Source of the DNA: a virus
Lineage: Duplodnaviria; Heunggongvirae; Uroviricota; Caudoviricetes
Length of the DNA stretch: 25,384 bases
IMG/VR virus record: IMGVR_UViG_2718218100_000015
Direction: 5' to 3' (one strand)
Position numbers and translations under genes: made by a program. The stretch's first letter is position 1; every line of letters begins with the position of its first letter. Below are positions 676-13,048 of this stretch, one piece after another. Under the pieces are notes generated by a model. That model was not told the DNA's origin. It ran no database searches and saw only the letters and a list, made by a program, of their open reading frames with translations.

Positions 676-1632
676 GTGACTAGTTATTCAAACTTTTCCA
701 ATCAAATAAAAGAAACCATCAATAATAAATTCGATCATGAAATTCATGATTGGGACATTATAAAAAACTCAATCACAACTTTAACAAATAAAAATATCCA
801 TGGTGCAGGTAGAAATATCGTTGATTTTATAGATTTAGGTAACTGGGATTTTATTTCAAACTTTTCCTTTGATGACTCTACAAGAAGACTTGAATTAGAG
901 TGGCACCCCAATGATAAATTCCATATATATATTGAGTCCGTTGTGTTTGTCGAGTTTAATGACACTATATATGCTTTCTTAAAGGGATACTATCACAATC
1001 AGTTATCTCTAAATAGAATATATAATACAAAATGCTCTTCATGTTCATTTGAAAACTCAGGTTCTTATATGGTAGACGTTTATAGAACGGTTAAAAGAGT
1101 AAATGAGACAATCCAGACCCCAAATATAAATTGCTATACTACATGTATTTTAACAAGGCCCGCAAATGGTCATGTTACATCTACAGGCTTCTCACGAAAC
1201 CTCATGGATGCGATAAATATTTCATTAGCAGAGCACAAAATAGCCTCTTTACATAATGAAGTCATGAGTATTGAGGAATATGATCGTGATTCTTTACAAG
1301 AGAAAGGAAATACTGCCAGGAGATATTTAGAATATATTCTCATGCTTGTTAATATTCGTATAATGCATTTAAACAACGTTCAATACCAAGAGCAAATGCT
1401 AGGTAGTTTAGTTTCTGTTATTGAGGCTCTGGACTATGAACCATTAATGAAAAATGATGTTGAAATTACAAAGGACATCCTTAATGCTTGCAGCCACCAC
1501 GGGGGGGTTAGAATTGAAAAGAAAGATGTAATTTTTTCTTTGGAAGTTATTGAAAACTTAATTAAAGCCATAAAGAAAACCGACATAAATAAATTACAAC
1601 TCGATGGGATGTTTAAATCAATTCAAAAATAA
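676..1632 (+). CDS. hypothetical protein, AT-rich accessory gene (318 aa), function unknown
   Basis: Long ORF with GTG start at 676 and GAGG 8 nt upstream; about 30% GC versus about 50% for the neighbouring primase; convergent with primase. Contains an Rx4H-like string (TRPANGH), which is weak evidence only. Confidence 0.5.
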   Translation: MTSYSNFSNQIKETINNKFDHEIHDWDIIKNSITTLTNKNIHGAGRNIVDFIDLGNWDFISNFSFDDSTRRLELEWHPNDKFHIYIESVVFVEFNDTIYAFLKGYYHNQLSLNRIYNTKCSSCSFENSGSYMVDVYRTVKRVNETIQTPNINCYTTCILTRPANGHVTSTGFSRNLMDAINISLAEHKIASLHNEVMSIEEYDRDSLQEKGNTARRYLEYILMLVNIRIMHLNNVQYQEQMLGSLVSVIEALDYEPLMKNDVEITKDILNACSHHGGVRIEKKDVIFSLEVIENLIKAIKKTDINKLQLDGMFKSIQK

Positions 1633-1764
1633 ACATCATCTAACAATGAATTAGATGCATTTTCCGCTGACGCCTTAGCATATAACTTTTAAATTTTATC
1701 GATATATATTTTGAGATAATTTCCTGTAGCGGATTTAAGACCGGCACAGCCGGTCTTAGGTCAG

Positions 1765-4098
1765 TTATTTCGCTGCAAACTCATCGCATTTTGGCAACCA
1801 GTCAGCATTGCTTTCCTCTCTTAGGGCCAGATTAGTCTGCATTCCTTGATTGGTCCGTCGTTTCTCATACTGCAGCCCATATTCCTTGAGCATTAACGGT
1901 AGCCCCTTGCCAAACATGGTCAGACTGAGCGTATTTTTATAGCCGTTAGCCTCCATGTAGACCAGATAGGCATGGTAGAGGTAAGTTCGAGGCTGACGTG
2001 GAACAATATTAGCGTTCCCCATAAACATGCCCGTGGTGTCAGGTAGGACCTCAAGGTAGCCGCAAAAATCAAAAGCTGAATCAGCATCACGTTTGATGGT
2101 GAGCGCTTCATCGGAGTTCTGCTGTGACTGAAGCAATGTCCTGGCACTCATTGGGTCGCTGAAACGCTGCATAAGCTGGCGAACAATCACCGCTAGCTCA
2201 CTGGCAATTTTCTCTTTGAGCTGGGTATCGCGTTCCTCCGGGGCTATCTGGTCGGGGAAATGCAGGATCACCCTTCGGCGTGAAACTCCACCACTACGAT
2301 CAGTGAAGCGCATCGGATTATTGTTCACAGCCAGGATGACCGCCGGGATGTGGGTTGAATAGGCGTTCTGATATTTGGGATCAACGGATACCGCATCGCC
2401 GCCAGTGATGGCTTTTAGTCCGGCCCCGTCACCGCTCCACTTTTCCTGGTCGGGAAGTCGAATCAGTGAAAAACCTATTAACGCAGCTCGTTCTCTTGGC
2501 GACTCAAGCATTTCAATGGTTGCCGAGGTCGCGTTATCTTCACCCGCCAGCATGGTTGCTATTTCAGCAAGAATACTCTTTCCACTTCCGCCAGGGCCAG
2601 TGACCTCCAGAAACAGCTGCCAGTCATAACGGTTAGCCAGCACCATAAACAATGCAGCCAGAATAATGTCCCGTTTTTCAGGATTAAAACCTGCGGCACG
2701 ATCCAGCCAGCGCCAGAATGCCGGGGCATGGGTTTCCAGTGACTCACCGTCAACGGGCTGCGTGTAATCCACCTCGCACAGCGTACGTAACCAGTGCTTC
2801 TTATCGTGCGGGCTGAACAATCCTGTCCGGGTATCGAGCACACCGTTGCGAAATCCGATAAGTTGCCGCGCCGGATTCTGCTGTTGCGGAACGATCAGTT
2901 TGAGGGTTTCCACGAGAGACGCAATTTTCGCGGATGAAAAAGGTGCGTCGAGGCGCTGAAACAGCGCAGCGACATCACGGGCAAAATCGGCGTAATAGAT
3001 AACTTTCCAGGCCCCCGCCTCATAGCGTGAAAGGAGCTGCCCGTTCGGGTCTACTGCCAGTGAATTTTTATAGTGATCCACTACCCTCTGCGCTTTTTCG
3101 CTGACGCTCAGCGCGGTAAATTCAGCTTCGCTCATTGTGTCGAAGGGGCTGGCAACAGCTGGTTTTATTACTTCATGAATTGCATGCCGGGTGGCTTCTT
3201 CGCCGTTTTGCGTGAATGCATCGTTCCAGTCACCAAACACAGGCGGGAGCGCCATTGTGCAATTGCAGGCCCCGGTAACAGCTGCGCCCCTTGTTTGCCC
3301 CGCACCGTTGAGATCGCGGTCAGCAGCAATAATTATCTGGTGCGTTGGGTACTCACTGCAGGCAATGCTCGCCAGGGAAAGGAAATTGACGGACGAAAAG
3401 GCCACCATGACAGCATCGCCAGTCAGATAGTTGATAGTAAGTGCGGTGGCATATCCTTCCGCTATCCAGAGCCGTTTGGCTGCTTTGGCAGTACCTTCAA
3501 CCAGGTAAAAGGCATTCTTAACCTGACCGCCTTTAAGGAAGCATTTGCCCCCATTAGCGTTGATTAACTGCAGATTTACCAGCTCTCCATCTGCATACAA
3601 TGGAACGACAAGATCTCCCGCGCGAAATGCCACACCACCGACTTTATGCATAGCGGTTAATTCCCGGCAAGGCAGTGCAGGAAACCCTTTACTCGTCAGA
3701 TAGGCATTGCCAGTGGTCTGGCGGGACTTATCAAACAAACGGGCAGCCAGCACTGCTGCAGCTTTTCTCCCGTCCTCTTTTTCAGGAGAACCAGATTCAA
3801 GCATTCCCTGAGATACTGGCAGCAGGTTTCCGATAATGCCGTTTATTCTGTCTGCCGCTTCACTAATGCCTACATCCAGTACTTTACTTACAAGCGCCAG
3901 GCCATCACCTGCCCCGCACTGGTTACAGAACCACGTTCCCCGCCCTTCCTGGTCATCAAATCGAAAGCGGTCTTTCCCGGCACAGACCGGGCAGGGCTGG
4001 TGCCGATTTTTCAGTACATTTACGCCCAGCGCAGGTAAAATTCTTGACCAGTGACCCCGAGCTGCTTTCTCAGCCTGGCTAACTTTCATTCCTGACAT
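1765..4098 (-). CDS. P4 alpha-like DNA primase/helicase (777 aa)
   Basis: N-terminal zinc-finger CPVCAGKDRFRFDD and CNQCG, Walker A VTGPGGSGKS in the C-terminal helicase part; ATG at 4096-4098 preceded by AAGGAGG (rc of 4107-4113); length equals P4 alpha. Confidence 0.9.
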   Translation of the reverse strand: MSGMKVSQAEKAARGHWSRILPALGVNVLKNRHQPCPVCAGKDRFRFDDQEGRGTWFCNQCGAGDGLALVSKVLDVGISEAADRINGIIGNLLPVSQGMLESGSPEKEDGRKAAAVLAARLFDKSRQTTGNAYLTSKGFPALPCRELTAMHKVGGVAFRAGDLVVPLYADGELVNLQLINANGGKCFLKGGQVKNAFYLVEGTAKAAKRLWIAEGYATALTINYLTGDAVMVAFSSVNFLSLASIACSEYPTHQIIIAADRDLNGAGQTRGAAVTGACNCTMALPPVFGDWNDAFTQNGEEATRHAIHEVIKPAVASPFDTMSEAEFTALSVSEKAQRVVDHYKNSLAVDPNGQLLSRYEAGAWKVIYYADFARDVAALFQRLDAPFSSAKIASLVETLKLIVPQQQNPARQLIGFRNGVLDTRTGLFSPHDKKHWLRTLCEVDYTQPVDGESLETHAPAFWRWLDRAAGFNPEKRDIILAALFMVLANRYDWQLFLEVTGPGGSGKSILAEIATMLAGEDNATSATIEMLESPRERAALIGFSLIRLPDQEKWSGDGAGLKAITGGDAVSVDPKYQNAYSTHIPAVILAVNNNPMRFTDRSGGVSRRRVILHFPDQIAPEERDTQLKEKIASELAVIVRQLMQRFSDPMSARTLLQSQQNSDEALTIKRDADSAFDFCGYLEVLPDTTGMFMGNANIVPRQPRTYLYHAYLVYMEANGYKNTLSLTMFGKGLPLMLKEYGLQYEKRRTNQGMQTNLALREESNADWLPKCDEFAAK

Positions 4099-4111
4099 TG
4101 TGCGGCCCTCC

Positions 4112-4435
4112 TTAGTGCAGCGCTGGTTTGTTGAGGTGACGGGAACAAAGTTCATCCATGACCGTCATTCCGAGCAGTGAGAGAACCGGACAGGCTTTAA
4201 GCGGCCCCGACTCCATCAGATCCGAAAGCAACGCGCAGGCAATTTCCAGCCCTCTTTGCTGCCCATGCTGGCGCAGATAGAACCCTTCCAGCTCGCGGGC
4301 TATGGCATCTTCAAGTTCAGCGAGCGTCAGGCCGGAATAACGTTCCTGATGATTGCTTAGAGCCAGCCAGGCACAGGCAACGGCACGGCGATACAGAGCG
4401 GCACGAAGTGCCAGAAGAGATTCACAGCATATCAT
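4112..4435 (-). CDS. hypothetical protein (107 aa) in P4-like early operon
   Basis: ORF whose stop overlaps the primase RBS; chained by overlaps to the upstream ORFs, which suggests translational coupling. No recognisable motif. Confidence 0.45.
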
Positions 4436-4656
4436 CAGGCCACCTCCGCATTCATCAGGTCGTCATGGCAGCGTTGCACCACTCCATCCAGTTGCTCTGT
4501 CATCAGATAAATGAGGGAAACCAGTTGTTCGCATTGGGCACCTGCTGGCTTTTCATAACAGTCCTGCAGGGCTGCCATGCCAGTTACATACTCACCCACA
4601 TTGCGTAAATGTTTCAGCCTTACAACATCGTCGTAGGAAATCTCAAACTGGTTCAT
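4435..4656 (-). CDS. hypothetical protein (73 aa)
   Basis: ORF overlapping the downstream ORF by 1 nt and the upstream ORF by 4 nt; no recognisable motif. Confidence 0.4.
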
Positions 4657-5210
4657 AGCGTCACCTCCCCGGCAGGCAGCCGTGCAGAAAGGGAGAGTAC
4701 ATAATCTCGGACTAGCAAACGGCGCGCGGAACGCTCATCGCAGGAGACAGTGCGAAGCATACAGATGCGGGGGTGAGTGTCAGCACGGCGGATTGCGGCA
4801 AACACAAAGACATATTGCGGGTGTGACGGGGTGAGGATTGTAGCCATGATGGCAGCCTCCAATAAGTAGCGGTTATTGCTACCACCGGAAACGCCAATTT
4901 CACTGGTGGCAGCCCGAACGGGGTTGGCGTAACCGGCCTTATTGGAAACCGGCCAGCCCGAAGGCTGCCCCGCCCGGACTACCATTATCTCGATAGAACC
5001 ATGGTGTAAGCATAAACACCACAGCCCTGAAAATGGTTGTGCCTGAGCTACGACGTAAAAAAAGACGCAAGGGGCGTCAATTGTCGCCAATAAGTTATAC
5101 GGAACGCCAATTCCGGCTGCCGATTTTGCGACAGCGGAAAAACTATACCTGGAAATGACGACAGTAAGCAAGCCAGAATAAAGGTATTTAATGTATGCAG
5201 GTATCATCAT
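4653..5210 (-). CDS. doubtful ORF (185 aa); may be partly non-coding P4-type immunity/leader region
   Basis: Start overlaps the alpA stop (ATGA), but composition is atypical (Cys/Trp-rich, low complexity) and the 5' part (about 4860-5200) looks like structured or intergenic sequence. Confidence 0.25.
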
Positions 5211-5467
5211 GCATCACATCCCCGCCCACGGGCGCTGATGCGGTCCGCCATCCATGCGCTGACCTCAGACTGTGCCCAGGCGACATTTTTACCGCCAAGC
5301 GGGATCTGCTTCGGAAACGCATCGCGGCTGATCAGGTCGTAAACGGTCGAACGGGACAACCCGCATAAGTGCATCACCTCAGGCAGGCGTAAAAATCGCT
5401 CATGATGGTTCGATACAGGAAATAATGGCGCAGCAGGAGCTGGCGCAGACACAGAAATATTACGCAT
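5207..5467 (-). CDS. AlpA/Vis-family prophage transcriptional regulator (86 aa)
   Basis: [32 protein letters not shown]...[14 protein letters not shown] matches the AlpA-type HTH pattern; sits at the head of the leftward operon ending in primase. Confidence 0.8.
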
Positions 5468-6302
5468 TTATCTACCCTCTTTAATTTCCACAACAGTCCG
5501 GATGAATTTATCCGGGTTCAGGTAGTTCCTTATTATGTGTATATAAACCACCTGCGCACGCATTTTTTATTTAGCGTCACATATTGATTTTATGGAATTT
5601 AAAGCCCGATTAAACCATATAAAATGACATAATAAATACCATGCCTGCGGACTATAAATACAGGAGCATTAATAGGAACTACCATTCACCCAGGGTTTAC
5701 TATCCTATGGGTCATTGCACCTGATAGTGCTAACCCCACCGCCAATACAGCAAGGCAGTACAACTTCTACACGAGGCCTTGCATTGCAGGCCCCAATTTC
5801 CGGGCATATTTTTGAATCGCATCCAACTTATAAACATTGGGCCTGCATAAAAACCTTGATATTAAATAACATCACCTTAAATCGTAAAATATATCCGAAT
5901 GAATCCATAAAGAACCGGACAGATCTAGTTTTATAAAAATCAGTATGAAATGCAACACCATGGCCAGAGGCGAAAATGTTATTCCCCGGCAAAAACATGC
6001 AGTCTATTTATGTGCCTGTTGAATACTCCTGAATAAGGGTGAATAGTGGTGAGGAGCAAAAAACAAATAGCTACGAGGAATAAAAAAACCACCCATTATG
6101 AAAAAATACCATAAATAATTTTATTCCCATGTGAACAGTTATGAACAGTCGATGAATACTGCCATGCCAACCCTTCACCTTATAACCTTCTGTATTACCT
6201 ATTTTTTTTACCTAAGTGAATAGTTAAGGTAAGTCTGAAACAGCCTTAGTTAAACGAGGCCTTTTCTGGCTAGCCAAAAGAGGTCCGGGGCGGTTCAGTC
6301 TT

Positions 6303-6320
6303 TGTCTTGTCGCTCGCACA
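6303..6320 (+). promoter_or_regulatory. TGT-N12-ACA dyad, candidate Ogr/Delta-dependent late promoter element upstream of sid
   Basis: tgt cttgtcgctcgc aca at 6303-6320, centred about 80 nt upstream of the sid ATG at 6391; P2/P4 late promoters carry this dyad near -55. Confidence 0.45.
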
Positions 6321-6390
6321 ATGGCGTTCAATGGCAGCTTTGTATGCATCACAGCACAATTGACACCACGACAAACCACTAGGTGCTGAC

Positions 6391-7143
6391 ATGACAATCC
6401 CAGAACAGAACAATAACCCGATCGTTGAAATTTCTATCCCTGTTTCGACGCAACAGGCGCTTGAGAAAGTGAATGCCACCAAATCTGCATGGCTTGAAGC
6501 ACGTCGTCAGCAAAAAGCGGCAGCGGATAATATTGCGACAATCCGCCAGCGCCGCGCTGAAATGGAAGCCACGACGAACGCCCTGAATGAGGAGTGGCGC
6601 ACGCTATTTCGTGAAAGTCAGGGCGTAGTCTCAAAGGAAATGAAAAAACTGCGCACGGAAATTGCGCTGGGACGAGAAACGCTTGAGGATTTTGATGAGC
6701 TGCTGGCGGCTCAGGAAAGCGAAAATGCACTTTTGCCGCAGGAGGCTGCGGAATTAGCCGGAAAGTATATCCACGCGCACGACACCCTTGTGGGTATTCG
6801 CGCAAAACAAATCTGGGAAGATTTTATGCAGTCGCATGGAAAAGCACTAATCCAGACACTAAGCCTGCTCAAATCAACAATGGGCAGGGAAGCCAGCGCA
6901 GTTGTCGGTGTGGTGCATTCAGTTAATGACCCGGACACACTGCTGAAAGATTTTATTCATAAACATATCACCAGACCGGCTCTGACTAACGATGCGATGC
7001 CCGAACAGGACCCCGTGTTTAAACTGGCGGGAGTTGCCCCGGATTATGCGGCCCGTCTGGATTTCAGTAATAAACTCTCTCCAGCAGCTATGCATAAAAT
7101 GAAGGTTCGTCAGGAACGTGCTGAGAAGGAGAAAGCAGTATGA
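6391..7143 (+). CDS. sid: Sid-like capsid size determination (external scaffold) protein (250 aa)
   Basis: Charged/helical 250-aa protein first in an operon followed by Psu-like and Ogr/Delta genes; size and context match P4 Sid. Assignment is by context, not motif. Confidence 0.55.
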   Translation: MTIPEQNNNPIVEISIPVSTQQALEKVNATKSAWLEARRQQKAAADNIATIRQRRAEMEATTNALNEEWRTLFRESQGVVSKEMKKLRTEIALGRETLEDFDELLAAQESENALLPQEAAELAGKYIHAHDTLVGIRAKQIWEDFMQSHGKALIQTLSLLKSTMGREASAVVGVVHSVNDPDTLLKDFIHKHITRPALTNDAMPEQDPVFKLAGVAPDYAARLDFSNKLSPAAMHKMKVRQERAEKEKAV

Positions 7144-7691
7144 TGGCCCGAGTCACTCCAGACCAAGCGCTTATCAGTTTTAGAAATGCCCGTATTCTGT
7201 GGGCTGGACATAGTGAGAGCCGAAAAGCCGTTGAACAACAGATAGAATCACTCCTCACTGCCATGGAAAAACCAGCAGATTATGCTCGACAGCTCGAATT
7301 ACAGCGGGAACATCTGGATGTGCTGAAATGGCAAATTAACTGTGCTGCGCGCGAATGCATTTACTCGCAGCATCAACTGATGGAGGCCTGCACAGAAGAC
7401 GCTCTCAGCAATTTTATGCAGGCGAATGGAGCAGCCCTGACATCTGCACTGGCTCCGTTCCTGAAGGGGCGCGGAGGGGTTGACGTTGCGTCCCGTATAT
7501 TACGCAATGCTCTGGTTCGCCAGCTGGCAATAACACCGCCTGAAATTGCCGGGGATTATCGTATGATTCTGGATGAATCCGGTGTGATGCCTGACCCCAT
7601 GATGGTTCGTGATTGCCAGAGCTCTTACACCCCTGCACAACAACTGCGCTTTCAGCAACGTCTGGATTACATTAACGGCATGCAGGAGTAA
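7140..7691 (+). CDS. psu: Psu-like polarity suppression / capsid decoration protein (183 aa)
   Basis: ATGA overlap with sid; recalled similarity to P4 Psu (KWQINCAAREC, QANGAALTSALAP, YTPAQQ) and size close to 190 aa. Confidence 0.65.
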   Translation: MMARVTPDQALISFRNARILWAGHSESRKAVEQQIESLLTAMEKPADYARQLELQREHLDVLKWQINCAARECIYSQHQLMEACTEDALSNFMQANGAALTSALAPFLKGRGGVDVASRILRNALVRQLAITPPEIAGDYRMILDESGVMPDPMMVRDCQSSYTPAQQLRFQQRLDYINGMQE

Positions 7692-7696
7692 TATTA

Positions 7697-7969
7697 ATGG
7701 CACTTAAATGTCCCGAATGCGGTACGACGGCACACGCCAGAACCTCCGCCTATGAAGCACCATCGGTTAAACGCTCATGGTATCAGTGCCAGAATCTTGA
7801 ATGTTCCTACACATTTACCGCACTGGAAAGTGTGGATACGATAATCATGAAGCCCCGGCGCAATGAACAGGAATCAGAGAAAGCACAAATGCCGGAAAAA
7901 CAACAGCAAACTCTCAATCGCTATGGCTCCGCGTCAAAGCTGTCAAGCCGTCAGCAAATTCCTGTCTGA
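7697..7969 (+). CDS. Ogr/Delta-family zinc-finger late transcription activator (90 aa)
   Basis: CPECGTTAHARTS...YQCQNLECSYTF is the Ogr/Delta C4 zinc-finger signature; GGAG RBS at 7685-7688. Confidence 0.85.
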   Translation: MALKCPECGTTAHARTSAYEAPSVKRSWYQCQNLECSYTFTALESVDTIIMKPRRNEQESEKAQMPEKQQQTLNRYGSASKLSSRQQIPV

Positions 7970-7990
7970 TTAGCAAAAAAAGCCCACGTA

Positions 7991-8017
7991 ATCCCGGTCC
8001 AGTACTGGGATTTTTTA
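7991..8017 (+). terminator. intrinsic terminator after the late operon
   Basis: Hairpin atcccggt-ccagt-actgggat (8-bp stem with one GU pair) followed by TTTTTT at 8011-8016, 22 nt after the delta stop. Confidence 0.55.
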
Positions 8018-8378
8018 CGCCTTTTCCCTGGCTGGCCTGAGAGCGCATGAGTGCATGTCTATAGCGCATGAAAACGCATGATTCTCATGCACCATTTTTG
8101 ACGCGAAAGCCCTTGTGTGGTGGCTTCTGAGACGATTTGCGGAATGCATGAAAACCAGTCTGTTAAGCGAAGCGAGCAGGCGTGGGGGGCTGCGCGCGCT
8201 AAGGGGTTAGATTATAAAATATCAAACGCCGGTGAGATCCATTATTGTGGAACCACCCGAAGGAAGTGTAGAGGCGAAAGTACCCAAAATAATTTTGCAA
8301 ATTATTTAGAAATGAACTGAGCGCTCGAAACGAAATATAATTTCGAGCACCCCAATTAGCAGTTATATTTTTAATGTA

Positions 8379-8945
8379 TTAAACAGGATAAAAACCAGAG
8401 CTTCCATTCTTATTTAAGTTATGGATTTTATTTGCATCATTAATTTTTATTTGGAACGTCGGACCTTTATTCTCAAGAATTACAATCTGGAAATTATAGT
8501 CCCTTTTGATTAATGCGTGATAAAATGAATCACTGAGACTGACGCTATTAACATCCGATAGAGAACCCCCTCTATCTTTATCAAAGTGCGTCACTAATGG
8601 ACTATCAAGCACAACAAATCCAATGAATGGATTCCCTTTTCTTGATAAAAATTCCGCAAAGCAAATGGTAAATATAGCATGCATTACTGCACGGGTACCT
8701 TTACCAAACATTCCTCGGCGTTTCCCATTGATATTAAAGTCATATGTATCTTCGTCAAATCGCACTTTGTTATCTTTAGAATTTTCAAAATTTATATCAT
8801 TCAAAAAGTCTTGCATCGCTATTTCTATATCATACAAATCAGCTACTGTTAAGGAGTCAAAGTCCTCGGCGGAGTATTTAAGTTCGTCAACATCATCTTC
8901 TTTATCTTGTAATGAAGATAGAATGCTATGTTTTGTGTGATCCAT
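8379..8945 (-). CDS. C-terminal ATPase part of a split SMC/ABC-type ATPase (signature-like FGKGTR, Walker-B-like FVVLDSP), 188 aa
   Basis: ATG at 8943-8945 overlaps the upstream stop (TAATG); FGKGTRAVMHAIF...FIGFVVLDSPLVTHFD resembles ABC signature plus Walker B/D-loop; last gene of the AT-rich cargo operon. Confidence 0.5.
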   Translation of the reverse strand: MDHTKHSILSSLQDKEDDVDELKYSAEDFDSLTVADLYDIEIAMQDFLNDINFENSKDNKVRFDEDTYDFNINGKRRGMFGKGTRAVMHAIFTICFAEFLSRKGNPFIGFVVLDSPLVTHFDKDRGGSLSDVNSVSLSDSFYHALIKRDYNFQIVILENKGPTFQIKINDANKIHNLNKNGSSGFYPV

Positions 8946-9535
8946 TAAAAGATTGTCTTTATATTCATAAAGTGATTCAAGAGATGAATGTATTGTTTTA
9001 TATTTTTATCTTCTAACGTCTTAAAATCACTTTTTTCTGATTGATAAATTTCATTAACATCATTTTTTCTTAACATAATTAATTCATGTTCGCGAACATT
9101 AGATCCGATTGATTCAATTAATCCTTTCAGCTGGCTTTTGATTTTCAATTTTTCTGCATTACACGACAAAAAACAATCATCATATGATATTTCATTTTCT
9201 TTTTTTTGCGGTGTATTACAGAACTCACAATAAATATCTGCAAAATTATTTAAATAGAAATTCGCCTGTGATACAACATCTATTCTTTGTAGATCTATAA
9301 AGTATTGGTCTTTAAGAAGACTAAATCTTTCAATGAGTAATGATAAGTATTTTTCCCTGTCACTGATTGAATATAATTCATCACTTAACTCTTTTAATAA
9401 TTGCTTCTTATCATCAAGTGCATCAACAATACCTTTCAATATATCTTTCGATGATTCAATATCTTGCTCTACTTTCTCAAGTTCTCTTGAAACAATGACT
9501 TGATCATATTCAGGATAAATTAATTGCGCTTTCAA
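8945..9535 (-). CDS. coiled-coil middle segment of the same ATPase (196 aa); no ATG, follows an in-frame TAA
   Basis: In the same frame as ORF 9566-10225, separated only by TAA at 9566-9568 and 10 sense codons; heptad-like charged sequence with CEFC...CFLSC Cys pairs. The ORF-track 'start' is TTG. Confidence 0.45.
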   Translation of the reverse strand: MKAQLIYPEYDQVIVSRELEKVEQDIESSKDILKGIVDALDDKKQLLKELSDELYSISDREKYLSLLIERFSLLKDQYFIDLQRIDVVSQANFYLNNFADIYCEFCNTPQKKENEISYDDCFLSCNAEKLKIKSQLKGLIESIGSNVREHELIMLRKNDVNEIYQSEKSDFKTLEDKNIKQYIHLLNHFMNIKTIF

Positions 9536-9565
9536 TTCCTCATAAATATTTGCAATTTGATTTTT

Positions 9566-10198
9566 TTAAAAATATCTTGCTTTTTTATTTGGTTTTTCTG
9601 CTAAGGAGTTAGTATCATCTCTCTGAGTTAAAAGGAATTTAAATTCAGACTTTCTTTTTGTCTCCTCGCTAGGAATATCAGAAAGAATTAACGACTTCTC
9701 AGTTAACACTCTTAATTCATCAATATAAAAAAATTCAAAAACATTATTAAGATTAAATTTATGAAGAGTATTACTTAAGTTTGTTCTTACTTTAGCCTCT
9801 TTGAAATTCAACCTACCATAAAAGTATGATGAAAAACTCTTTTTAGACGAAGCACTTTTGGAAAAAACCATCAACAGATTAGCTTCACTAACATTTTCAA
9901 TGCTCGAATCATATAATCTGTAATGGGCGCTATCCTGAAGAGACCTCTCAATTGTCATTACCCTACCTTGAAAATTAAATTCCAGATAGGCTAAATCATA
10001 ACCTTGAGCATGATCGATATCTTTATTTTTTAGTTTTTCACTCCCTAATAAATATCGAATCAAATAATATATGTATGTTTTTCCAGAGTCAGAACCACCA
10101 TATAAAATAGTCAATTTAGAACCAAATTCAATTATAGCATCTAATTTATTGAATCCGGTTACCTTTATTTTTCTGAACGTAAAAAAATTGTCATTCAT
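9566..10198 (-). CDS. N-terminal Walker-A part of SMC/ABC-type ATPase (LmuB-like), terminated by in-frame TAA
   Basis: ATG at 10196-10198 (MNDNFFTFRKIKVTGF...), Walker A ILYGGSDSGKTY at residues 32-41; ends at TAA 9566-9568 with the reading frame continuing downstream. Confidence 0.55.
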   Translation of the reverse strand: MNDNFFTFRKIKVTGFNKLDAIIEFGSKLTILYGGSDSGKTYIYYLIRYLLGSEKLKNKDIDHAQGYDLAYLEFNFQGRVMTIERSLQDSAHYRLYDSSIENVSEANLLMVFSKSASSKKSFSSYFYGRLNFKEAKVRTNLSNTLHKFNLNNVFEFFYIDELRVLTEKSLILSDIPSEETKRKSEFKFLLTQRDDTNSLAEKPNKKARYF

Positions 10199-10649
10199 AA
10201 TTAAATTCCATATCATATTTGCCAATTTTATTTTTTATAATTGATTGCAACTGCTCATCAGGAATATCACTATATAACTTAACCACCAAATTTATATTAT
10301 GCTCCATCTGCGCAACATATTCATTATGTAGAGAATTTGTAAATGCATATGTTTTTTCAGAAGCTTTATATACAAAACCACGATGTGTATAAATTTTTGA
10401 GGCTAGTTCATAGCCTTGCAACAAAGCCAATGATTCTAAAACAATCTCTCGTTTTAGGGCTAACTGAGCATCTCTACGGGGTATTGGAGGATGAAGACTA
10501 ATCTCTTCAGGTAAAAAATCCTTAAGATTTACTAAAATAAAATCAAAACAAATAAGCCGTTCAAGGCTTAATGAAGAAGGATAAATAGCGACGAGCACTT
10601 TCGCCATTCGACATGCCACTTCTAAACTTGAATTATAAATTCTAACCAT
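10191..10649 (-). CDS. small hypothetical protein (152 aa) of the cargo operon (LmuC-like position)
   Basis: ATG at 10647-10649 overlaps the stop of the upstream ORF (TAATG); stop overlaps the start of the ATPase gene; no recognisable motif. Confidence 0.45.
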   Translation of the reverse strand: MVRIYNSSLEVACRMAKVLVAIYPSSLSLERLICFDFILVNLKDFLPEEISLHPPIPRRDAQLALKREIVLESLALLQGYELASKIYTHRGFVYKASEKTYAFTNSLHNEYVAQMEHNINLVVKLYSDIPDEQLQSIIKNKIGKYDMEFNYE

Positions 10650-11266
10650 TATCTCACCGTCCAAATTACTTCACCATCATTAACCAAATGATGGCATATT
10701 CCTTTTTTATCATTTGCTTCACATATTTTTGATAGTACTGAATGTGCAATTGGTGTCAGAACAGCCTGCTTCAAGACTGCATTACACCTAATAAATGCAT
10801 AATTATGGTCTTCATAAAAGACGGGTTCAATTGAAGATGAAATGTAACATTTCAATGCTTTGAATACATCATCTTTAAATACTTCGCGGACAAAAACCTC
10901 AAGCGAAGATGCAAAATAAAAATCATTTCTACTATTATTAAAGTGTCGTCTGTATGGATCATCAAGCTCTAAGAAAGAACTATAAGTTTTATTTCCATGC
11001 TCTGAATAGGCTTGAAGCAGTGCATTAACATATACAGACTCTTTTTTTGAATTGTATGTTGGAATTTCATTTGGAGGGATTCTCACGACATACAGCTCGT
11101 TAAAGTACTTAAAATAAAGGTGTGTATTTGCAATATCATTTAAAATCAATGATAAGGGTAGAGAGTAAAAAATACTAAAATCAAAATCCTCAATATATTT
11201 TTTTATTTCATCATCTAATGGAATATCAATCTTTTTAGTTATTTTTTTGAAATTGCTGAATCCCAT
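10649..11266 (-). CDS. C-terminal portion (205 aa) of putative effector; probably the same gene as 11239-11655 after a frameshift
   Basis: Overlaps the upstream ORF by 28 nt around an A7 run (T7 at 11242-11248 on the plus strand); the two frames differ by 1. Confidence 0.45.
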   Translation of the reverse strand: MGFSNFKKITKKIDIPLDDEIKKYIEDFDFSIFYSLPLSLILNDIANTHLYFKYFNELYVVRIPPNEIPTYNSKKESVYVNALLQAYSEHGNKTYSSFLELDDPYRRHFNNSRNDFYFASSLEVFVREVFKDDVFKALKCYISSSIEPVFYEDHNYAFIRCNAVLKQAVLTPIAHSVLSKICEANDKKGICHHLVNDGEVIWTVR

Positions 11267-11655
11267 GAATCAAGGACTGCTTTTTTAAGCTCGTTTTTAT
11301 TTTTCAATAAATTAGAAAATGTAGTAGATAAATCATAGGGTGCCACAAAAAAGTACTTCTGAGGGATGGGATAATCACCATTCAGAGTAAAATAGATAAG
11401 TTTTCCAAACTCAACTACAACATCAGAGAACCCTAAACTTTTTTTGTACAGTTTGCATTGATAATTATCCCAAGAATAACCTTCTACGTTAGGATCCGAT
11501 TTATATCCAACAACGTCTCTACCTTTATCTCCAGCTCCTCCCAAACGTTCGCTCCACGGGTAATCATCTGATTTACAGACAATAAGCCAATCATGGACAA
11601 ATACCTCCCATTGTTCATCATCCCATGTCAATATTTCCGAAAGTGGTTGAGACAC
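11239..11655 (-). CDS. N-terminal portion (138 aa) of putative effector with Mrr/Cap4-like PD-(D/E)xK nuclease signature
   Basis: GGAGDKGRDVVGY...NYQCKLYKK fits the D-x-G-x-D ... Q-x-K pattern of Mrr-type restriction-endonuclease folds; first gene after the integrase in the cargo slot. Confidence 0.5.
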   Translation of the reverse strand: MSQPLSEILTWDDEQWEVFVHDWLIVCKSDDYPWSERLGGAGDKGRDVVGYKSDPNVEGYSWDNYQCKLYKKSLGFSDVVVEFGKLIYFTLNGDYPIPQKYFFVAPYDLSTTFSNLLKNKNELKKAVLDSWDSAISKK

Positions 11656-11658
11656 AAA

Positions 11659-12840
11659 TTAACTCCTTTTTAGTCTTTCAAATATCAAATTACTGTACCA
11701 GTCCATCATAGACTTCCTTCCACTAAAATATTGAGCATGGTTATAAGTCCCCCTAATAGAATTTTTATCTACATGAGCCAACTGGATTTCAATCCAAGCA
11801 CTCTCAAAACCTTGCTCATGCAGGATTGTAGAAAGGGTATGACGAAAACCATGTCCAGTGACTTTTCCTCCATACCCAATACGCTTAATGGCTTGATTTA
11901 TACTCGCTTCGCTCATTGGCCTATTCGGATCGTTCCGCCCTGGAAAAACATAACGATAGTTCCCTGTCATGATCTTGAGTTCATTGAGTAAATCTACCGC
12001 TTGAGATGATAAGGGCACAAGATGTGGCCTACGCATTTTCATCCTTTCAGCAGGAATTTCCCAAATAGCGTTATCCAGATCAAATTCTTGCCATAATGCC
12101 GCGCGTAATTCGATGGTTCTCACACCCGTAATCATCAGTAATTTCGTGGCTATCTGGACAAGCTTACTCCCGGAGTAACCCTCTAAGGCACGTAGAAAAT
12201 CAGGTATCTCATCAGCTTTTAGGAATGGGAAATGATTGGATTGGTGTACTTCGAGAGCGCTGGAGAGCTCAGCCGCAGGATTGTACTCCGCCCTACCCGT
12301 TGCAATTGCGTAGCGAAACACTTCGGAGCAACGCTGCCGCACTTTGCGCATTTTCTCCAACGCACCACGTTTCTCAATTTTACGCAGAACGTTCAGCAGC
12401 TCTAGCGGTTTAATCTCTCCCACAGGCCTTGTTCCGACATAAGGAAAAATGTCGTTCTTAAACGCTTCCATGATGTCTGATGCATATCCCGCCGACCATT
12501 TAGCAGATTTAAGTTGATGCCACTCTCTGGCTATCTTTTCGAAGGCGTTCTCTGACTCTGTTTGCATAGCTAGCTTTTGCTCTTTTCGAACCTCACTAGG
12601 GTTCTTTCCTTCTGCCACAAGTTTTCGAGCTTCATCACGACGGGAACGAGCATCGGCAAGGGTGATCGTTGGGTAAACACCAAGCGAGATCATTTTGGGT
12701 TTGCCGGCATAGCGATAGCGGAACCGCCAACTCTTGCTTCCATTAGGTTCTATAAGTAATGACAACCCTAGCCCATCTCCAAATGTATAGGCTTTAGCTT
12801 CAGGCTTAGCGCGGCGAATCTGCATATCGTTTAAAGGCAT
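11659..12840 (-). CDS. int: P4-type tyrosine integrase (393 aa)
   Basis: ATG at 12838-12840 (MPLNDMQIRRAKPEAKAYTFGDG...); catalytic region HGFRHTLSTILHEQG ... IRGTYNH; lies 160 bp downstream of a tRNA-Thr 3' fragment in the same orientation. Confidence 0.9.
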   Translation of the reverse strand: MPLNDMQIRRAKPEAKAYTFGDGLGLSLLIEPNGSKSWRFRYRYAGKPKMISLGVYPTITLADARSRRDEARKLVAEGKNPSEVRKEQKLAMQTESENAFEKIAREWHQLKSAKWSAGYASDIMEAFKNDIFPYVGTRPVGEIKPLELLNVLRKIEKRGALEKMRKVRQRCSEVFRYAIATGRAEYNPAAELSSALEVHQSNHFPFLKADEIPDFLRALEGYSGSKLVQIATKLLMITGVRTIELRAALWQEFDLDNAIWEIPAERMKMRRPHLVPLSSQAVDLLNELKIMTGNYRYVFPGRNDPNRPMSEASINQAIKRIGYGGKVTGHGFRHTLSTILHEQGFESAWIEIQLAHVDKNSIRGTYNHAQYFSGRKSMMDWYSNLIFERLKRS

Positions 12841-13002
12841 GTGTATAGGAATCCAGACCGAACAGGAACATATACACAATCCTATACACATTCAGTACCG
12901 GATTCTACTGGATGGTTACGGACTACTATGGACTTAAAAGAATAAAAAATGTTATAAATCAGAGATTTTATGGACTAATACGGACGTTTGAGGAAGTTGA
13001 GA

Positions 13003-13048
13003 TGGTGCCGATAATAGGAGTCGAACCTACGACCTTCGCATTACGAAT
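13003..13048 (-). other. 3' fragment (about 46 nt) of tRNA-Thr(CGU), thrW-like; att-site remnant, 5' half absent
   Basis: Reverse complement reads ATTCGTAATGCGAAGGTCGTAGGTTCGACTCCTATTATCGGCACCA (anticodon loop through CCA end); sequence beyond 13048 does not continue as D-arm or acceptor stem. Confidence 0.75.

Follow-up and report, generated by a model that had tools for sequence, protein, structure and literature searches.

The split lmuA gene of prophage Sp2 in Escherichia coli O157:H7: very probably a fixed frameshift pseudogene in a decaying Lamassu operon

The overlapping open reading frames (ORFs) ECs_0290 and ECs_0291 of the P4-like prophage Sp2 of Escherichia coli O157:H7 each represent one half of lmuA, the effector gene of a type II Lamassu operon (lmuA-lmuC-lmuB), a class of anti-phage system also named ABC-3C (bioRxiv 10.1101/2025.06.23.660979). 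The best explanation of the split, in which we have high confidence, is that lmuA is a frameshift pseudogene, fixed in the O55:H7/O157:H7 lineage, which lost one nucleotide from a run of eight A within an operon that is decaying. The marks of such a pseudogene are present: a near-identical intact allele is one repeat unit longer, further lesions lie nearby, and the shorter tract is fixed in the lineage. The genomes compared show directly that the nucleotide was deleted, that its loss is fixed and that further lesions exist; the split would abolish effector function, because the C-terminal domain (CTD) of LmuA tethers the effector and drives its tetramerisation in other Lamassu systems. As biology, the deletion is an ordinary one.

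Genomic context of the Lamassu operon

The window is the whole stretch of DNA that was analysed (25,384 nucleotides), of which the region considered here matches the Sakai and EDL933 strains of E. coli O157:H7 with 100% identity and is labelled in the Sakai record as 'prophage Sp2, P4-like phage'. On the coding strand, the P4-type integrase gene is followed by ECs_0290, ECs_0291, a gene of 152 aa, the ATPase gene ECs_0293, delta/ogr, psu and sid. The features that concern the operon are as follows.

13003-13048, minus strand: 3' 46 nt of thrW, tRNA-Thr(CGT), the attachment-site remnant of the P4-like element
11659-12840, minus strand: intS, P4-type tyrosine integrase, 393 aa as annotated (Pfam Arm-DNA-bind_3, Phage_int_M, Phage_integrase)
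11239-11655, minus strand: lmuA 5' fragment, 138 aa (ECs_0290 / WP_000082144.1), with a predicted complete PD-(D/E)xK restriction-endonuclease-fold domain
11242-11248, minus strand: run of seven A on the coding strand (T7 on the plus strand)
10649-11241, minus strand: lmuA 3' part in the -1 frame, linker and CTD6 (Pfam PF20282, PADLOC LmuA)
10191-10649, minus strand: lmuC, ABC-3C middle component 2, 152 aa, ORF intact (Pfam MC2, E = 6e-30; PADLOC LmuC, E = 2.5e-36)
8379-10198, minus strand: lmuB pseudogene, SMC/Rad50-like ABC ATPase (PADLOC LmuB, tblastn)
9566-9568, minus strand: lmuB nonsense codon, Leu211 TTA > TAA, found in O157 but not in O55:H7 or the intact alleles
9003-9007, minus strand: lmuB run of five A, a 1-nt deletion from A6 causing a frameshift, common to O55:H7 and O157:H7

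The integrase gene lies directly upstream of lmuA, its stop codon falling inside the spacer between the Shine-Dalgarno sequence and the start codon of lmuA. The thrW remnant is identical to positions 4607-4652 of an element that carries an intact lmuA (L092), where ARAGORN places the 3' end of tRNA-Thr; no complete tRNA is found within the 25-kb window. Farther out is the adjacent Sp1 remnant, which includes an IS3-family fragment. The lmuACB genes, with a G+C content of 28-31% against about 50% in the flanks, occupy the integrase-proximal variable region of the element, which is the defence hotspot of P4-like satellites (Rousset et al. 2022, PMC9122126). The P4-hotspot system of 'O157:H7 FRIK944', which was inactive in that study (PMC9122126), was considered as the same locus and rejected, since the supplement gives it as a two-gene cytidine-deaminase system of another element.

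Domain structure of the lmuA product

The operon has the gene content of type II Lamassu, namely three adjacent co-oriented genes for an effector, a middle component and an SMC/Rad50-like ABC ATPase, and its effector has the expected composition of an ABC-3C CTD and an N-terminal nuclease of the PD-(D/E)xK fold. The 3' part of lmuA, annotated as a 205-aa ORF (10649-11266, ECs_0291 / WP_001303996.1), contains the CTD6 domain (PF20282, E = 7.7e-30, 104 bits against a cut-off of 26.4). The conceptually repaired protein aligns with positions 10-333 of the 336-position PADLOC LmuA profile PDLC03852 (E = 8e-89), of which the 138-aa ORF covers 10-140 and the 205-aa ORF 141-333. As the two halves align with a single protein family from end to end, the overlap of the ORFs is not due to chance.

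The 138-aa fragment contains the family-invariant nuclease motif residues (G40 G42 D43 G45 D47 ... Q66 (C67) K68), of which D43, D47, Q66 and K68 are invariant among 67 family members. A structure model was made on a Xenorhabdus homologue (P0001) that is 67% identical to the repaired LmuA; the AlphaFold model (pLDDT 94.3) predicts an alpha-beta-beta-beta-alpha-beta core at residues 13-104 and a helix at residues 120-138; the frameshift point coincides with the end of this helix, between the nuclease core and a loop. The nuclease fold came from a fold search; a PDB sequence search with the LmuA family profile gave nothing significant (best E = 0.21), and an NCBIfam scan of all five products matched no family. 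The label of putative nuclease effector is thus well supported, with the predicted catalytic domain entirely in the first ORF and the Lamassu-docking domain in the second. In solved Lamassu complexes the CTD of LmuA docks the effector on the LmuB dimer and LmuC, and after release it mediates the tetramerisation that activates the nuclease (bioRxiv 10.1101/2025.06.23.660979). The V. cholerae DdmABC system differs in having a Cap4-type nuclease, CTD7 and MC3, where the operon of Sp2 has an Mrr/FokI-like PD-(D/E)xK nuclease, CTD6 and MC2. Salmonella enterica LmuACB (PDB 9hqx) and DdmABC are both type II Lamassu systems; that of the window would be non-functional, with lmuA split and lmuB in three pieces.

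Reading frames at the A7 tract

The 138-aa and 205-aa ORFs overlap by 28 nt, the frame of the latter being -1 relative to that of the former, and the overlap falls exactly at the seven A, where the upstream frame reads tcA AAA AAA TAA; the TAA directly after the tract (11239-11241) is an immediate stop in that frame. Addition of one A (A8) creates one continuous ORF of 335 aa (...AISKKITKKIDIP...), the conceptual repair, which contains ...DSAISKKITKKIDIP.... Removal of one A (A6) leads to ...SKNN* and a stop, without fusing the two ORFs. The sequence-only reading, which had supposed that one more or one fewer A would fuse them, is therefore right for one more and wrong for one fewer.

The 138-aa ORF begins with GTG and has an AGGAG Shine-Dalgarno sequence 7 nt upstream; no recognisable Shine-Dalgarno sequence was found before the ATG of the 205-aa ORF, and the opposite strand at the overlap has no ORF of at least 40 aa. 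Runs of exactly seven A or T occur 19 times in the window and T8 runs three times. Since such runs are common, the tract by itself is unremarkable, and it is the homology spanning the tract that gives it meaning.

Intact homologues and a near-identical A8 allele

A protein search returned 157 relatives of the repaired LmuA; among the matches listed, 120 of 324-381 aa cover 91-100% of it, the exceptions being two fragmentary proteins and one shorter one. Operons from Xenorhabdus, Aeromonas and two metagenome contigs, with their genes in the same order as in Sp2, encode LmuA of 334-337 aa, LmuC of 151-154 aa and LmuB of 604-609 aa. At each of 86 related loci from many phyla, a single tblastn high-scoring pair spans the junction (86/86), representing one protein of about 335 aa, and a conserved two-ORF organisation is not seen. 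The run of A at the junction varies from A1 to A9 among these loci and is in frame every time: in the codon alignment, Aeromonas has TCA AAA AAA ATT, an in-frame A8 that encodes S-K-K-I within SISKKIT, the motif being conserved, and another relative has AGT AAA AAA ATA. An in-frame A8 or A9 is found at or near the junction in Chryseobacterium hispalense (L021), in Aeromonas (L005/L006) and in L023, an example being GAA AAA AAA ATT. The presence of A8 or A9 in some intact homologues indicates that the family repeatedly exposes a slippage-prone tract at the K-K-I motif.

The repaired protein also exists in nature. An exact-sequence look-up finds it (P0123, named 'ABC-three component system protein' by NCBI) on 434 contigs, from which eight loci (L092-L099) were fetched. 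Over int-lmuACB these are 99.2% identical to the window in DNA (98.7-99.8% across the loci); the sole difference in lmuA is A8 instead of A7, together with a synonymous C>T in one locus, and lmuB is a single intact ORF of 606 aa. Alleles so nearly identical that have A8 show directly that a single A was lost from A8 to give the O157 state. The proposal that a frameshift at A7 splits a putative nuclease effector is accordingly sustained, by the homology across the junction and by the A8 alleles.

The intact-allele loci sit at the tRNA-Thr(CGT) gene thrW, adjoining proA. The crl-phoE-proBA genes in the flanks of most of these loci have only ~80% identity to those of E. coli, and from these flanks the host is probably Salmonella enterica, which fits the names on cluster members; one metagenome contig (L099) combines flanks 99.8% identical to E. 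coli with an A8 lmuA. As int-lmuACB is ~99% identical (8135-13048) in loci where core genes are ~80% identical (L092, L093, L095), a recent transfer of the element between genera is indicated. In the E. coli complete-genome collection there is no intact or diverged copy of lmuA, all matches being at least 99% identical.

The elements that carry the intact allele (L092-L098) match the window at 743-4227, on the primase side (99.7%), and at 8135-13048 (~99%). They are without the 3.9-kb block at 4228-8134 that contains sid, psu, delta/ogr and their neighbours, and their lmuB abuts the P4 alpha-type primase gene; the difference is due either to a deletion in these elements or to insertion of the capsid-hijacking module in O157. 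Compared with the intact alleles, the window has a 1-nt indel at 12857 and a cluster of ~20 mismatches at 12924-13001, the coding regions being ~99.7% identical. Both lie between the thrW remnant and the start of the integrase gene, and may represent a variable att/promoter region of the element.

Fixation of the A7 allele

All 308 matching E. coli records (307 of them complete genomes) have one and the same 71-nt stretch with A7; among them are Sakai, EDL933, O55:H7 and the sorbitol-fermenting O157 strain 493/89. Since O157 and O55:H7 share the A7 tract, the deletion predates their split. Metagenome and IMG/VR contigs were scanned with a pattern whose tract could be 6-10 bases long; eight contigs have A7 and one has A8. 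Where both the lmuA tract and the lmuB A6/A5 site are visible, eight loci have A8 with A6, four loci and the window have A7 with A5, and none is mixed.

Homopolymers are classic error sites on some sequencing platforms, and an assembly error had been among the explanations offered from the sequence by itself. This is refuted by the 307 complete genomes, all with the same sequence although they were sequenced independently by many laboratories on many platforms, Sakai and EDL933 dating from the Sanger era; A7 in eight of the nine metagenome or IMG/VR contigs speaks against it as well, and the probability of a sequencing or assembly artefact is practically nil. The same reading had raised the possibility of a slippery tract that switches the effector on and off. 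Phase variation, in which a contingency tract turns lmuA on (A8) or off (A7) within a population, would account for the occurrence of both lengths in nature on an otherwise identical lmuA, and homopolymers are indel hotspots, to which three of the five indels in the operon across strains, located in runs of at least five A, conform. The constant length of the tract in all 308 E. coli records speaks against it, as does the distinctness of the A8 haplotype, which has eight further lmuCB substitutions, A6 rather than A5 in lmuB and another downstream junction. A tract of seven A is also short for efficient switching in an enterobacterium with proficient mismatch repair. Moreover, the on state could not work in O157 owing to the lesions of lmuB, given which a repaired lmuA could not by itself bring the system back. 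With no length polymorphism in the lineage and A8 found only with an intact lmuB, a switch is unsupported and exceedingly improbable, and it is the remaining suggestion of that reading, a recent inactivating mutation, that agrees with the A8 alleles, the single-protein homologues and the two lesions of lmuB.

Recoding or gene fission

The A7 tract has some of the appearance of a recoding site. The overlap contains what is formally a perfect -1 slippery heptamer (X_XXY_YYZ) in the 0 frame, followed by an immediate stop, and there are precedents for interrupted genes being rescued at poly-A, in the A11 tract of Citrobacter tssM (PMC4256274) and the A8-A9 tracts of IS elements (PMC1088944). Known poly-A recoding sites (dnaX with A_AAA_AAG, the IS3/IS1 transposases and tssM) resemble lmuA in that a run of A lies at an overlap whose fusion gives the full-length protein. 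Programmed recoding, in which A_AAA_AAA and the stop would be used for -1 ribosomal frameshifting or for transcriptional slippage that adds one A, is nevertheless highly improbable, and just as improbable is its expected outcome, a short nuclease-only protein and full-length LmuA made in a set ratio. The heptamer register is not independent evidence because it arises automatically when one A is deleted from TCA AAA AAA ATA. The downstream 92 nt fold worse than shuffled sequences (minimum free energy -5.9 kcal/mol, z = +1.65, with 195 of 200 shuffles at least as stable), and inspection by eye reveals no Shine-Dalgarno-like stimulator upstream, the sole G-rich stretch being GGGA in a conserved TGG GAT (Trp-Asp). 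The two-ORF form is confined to the O55:H7/O157:H7 clone, diverged homologues being fused, and full-length LmuA would find no complex to join, as lmuB is broken twice. The lmuA tract thus differs from the poly-A recoding systems in having no stimulatory structure, a split that is not conserved, a short A7 and a dead partner gene.

[quoted passage not shown] Spontaneous slippage, ribosomal or transcriptional, may yield traces of full-length LmuA, for which there would be no LmuB partner.

Functional gene fission would have the nuclease domain and the CTD6 domain act as two polypeptides. In its favour, nearly every genome has both ORFs open, lmuA shows no substitution beyond the indel, and the break falls at the end of the helix at residues 120-138, past the nuclease core and ahead of a loop. 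Because the lineage is young and clonal, open ORFs are no evidence of selection, and a 205-aa ORF that lacks a recognisable Shine-Dalgarno sequence, a split found in no other lineage (86 loci) and a dead lmuB make fission hardly credible. A further possibility is that slippage at A_AAA_AAA-stop, or the free 138-aa domain, supplies active nuclease in small amounts, kept under selection and uncoupled from the Lamassu sensor; this is very unlikely. When O157 is compared with the intact allele after repair of the indels, there are no substitutions in lmuA, one in lmuC (Ile>Met) and eight in lmuB, eight of the nine being nonsynonymous. The lack of substitutions in lmuA is mildly unexpected (about P = 0.03 under a length-proportional expectation, uncorrected), and the contrast of zero in lmuA with nine in lmuCB may be a weak hint of residual constraint on lmuA.

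Decay of lmuB and the proposed course of events

The window contains neither a complete translatable lmuA nor a complete translatable lmuB, both of which a working Lamassu system needs. Intact alleles of lmuB encode 606 aa. The three pieces in the window (9566-10225, 8945-9535 and 8379-8945) match the 610-position PADLOC LmuB profile at 3-199, 231-412 and 428-608, with E-values of 9.5e-50, 1.6e-21 and 5.1e-37, and tblastn of the region with intact homologues reveals a stop codon in frame and a shift of frame. The O55:H7 strain RM12579 (L010) is without the nonsense codon and has both the A7 tract of lmuA and the A5 frameshift of lmuB. It also has a private A6>A5 deletion in lmuB, equivalent to window positions 9031-9036, and the O157 strain NE1092-2 (L009) has a private 1-nt deletion in the 5' fragment of lmuA, equivalent to window position 11612. 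Such private 1-nt deletions in single strains mean that decay of the operon is continuing.

The pseudogene explanation suggests the following course of events. In the ancestor of O55:H7 and O157:H7, replication slippage would have removed one A from an in-frame A8 (TCA AAA AAA ATA, encoding S-K-K-I). Translation would then end after residue 138, just past the nuclease domain; CTD6 would lie in the -1 frame, with no recognisable ribosome-binding site of its own. By comparison with other Lamassu systems, a nuclease domain cut at residue 138 would be neither sequestered nor activated. Decay of the operon has been stepwise, through the lmuB A6>A5 deletion held in common with O55:H7, the TTA>TAA change in O157 and the strain-specific 1-nt deletions.

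Significance

The split matters chiefly for annotation: the two coding sequences that RefSeq gives for lmuA as separate genes should be one frameshifted pseudogene. PGAP names the products 'hypothetical protein' (WP_000082144.1) and 'ABC-three component system protein' (WP_001303996.1) and gives the three pieces of lmuB as separate proteins; only the Sakai record flags lmuB (ECs_0293) as a pseudogene. Censuses of defence systems based on hidden Markov models could score a dead Lamassu in every O157:H7 genome. No published experiment on phage or plasmid defence by the lmuACB locus of O157 was found in the literature, and the 99%-identical intact allele is a ready-made experimental control. Defence systems in P4-satellite hotspots are reported to be swapped before they pseudogenise, defence pseudogenes there being rare (PMC13586616); lmuACB is a counter-example, a hotspot system that has decayed stepwise and has been fixed through the radiation from O55:H7 to O157:H7.
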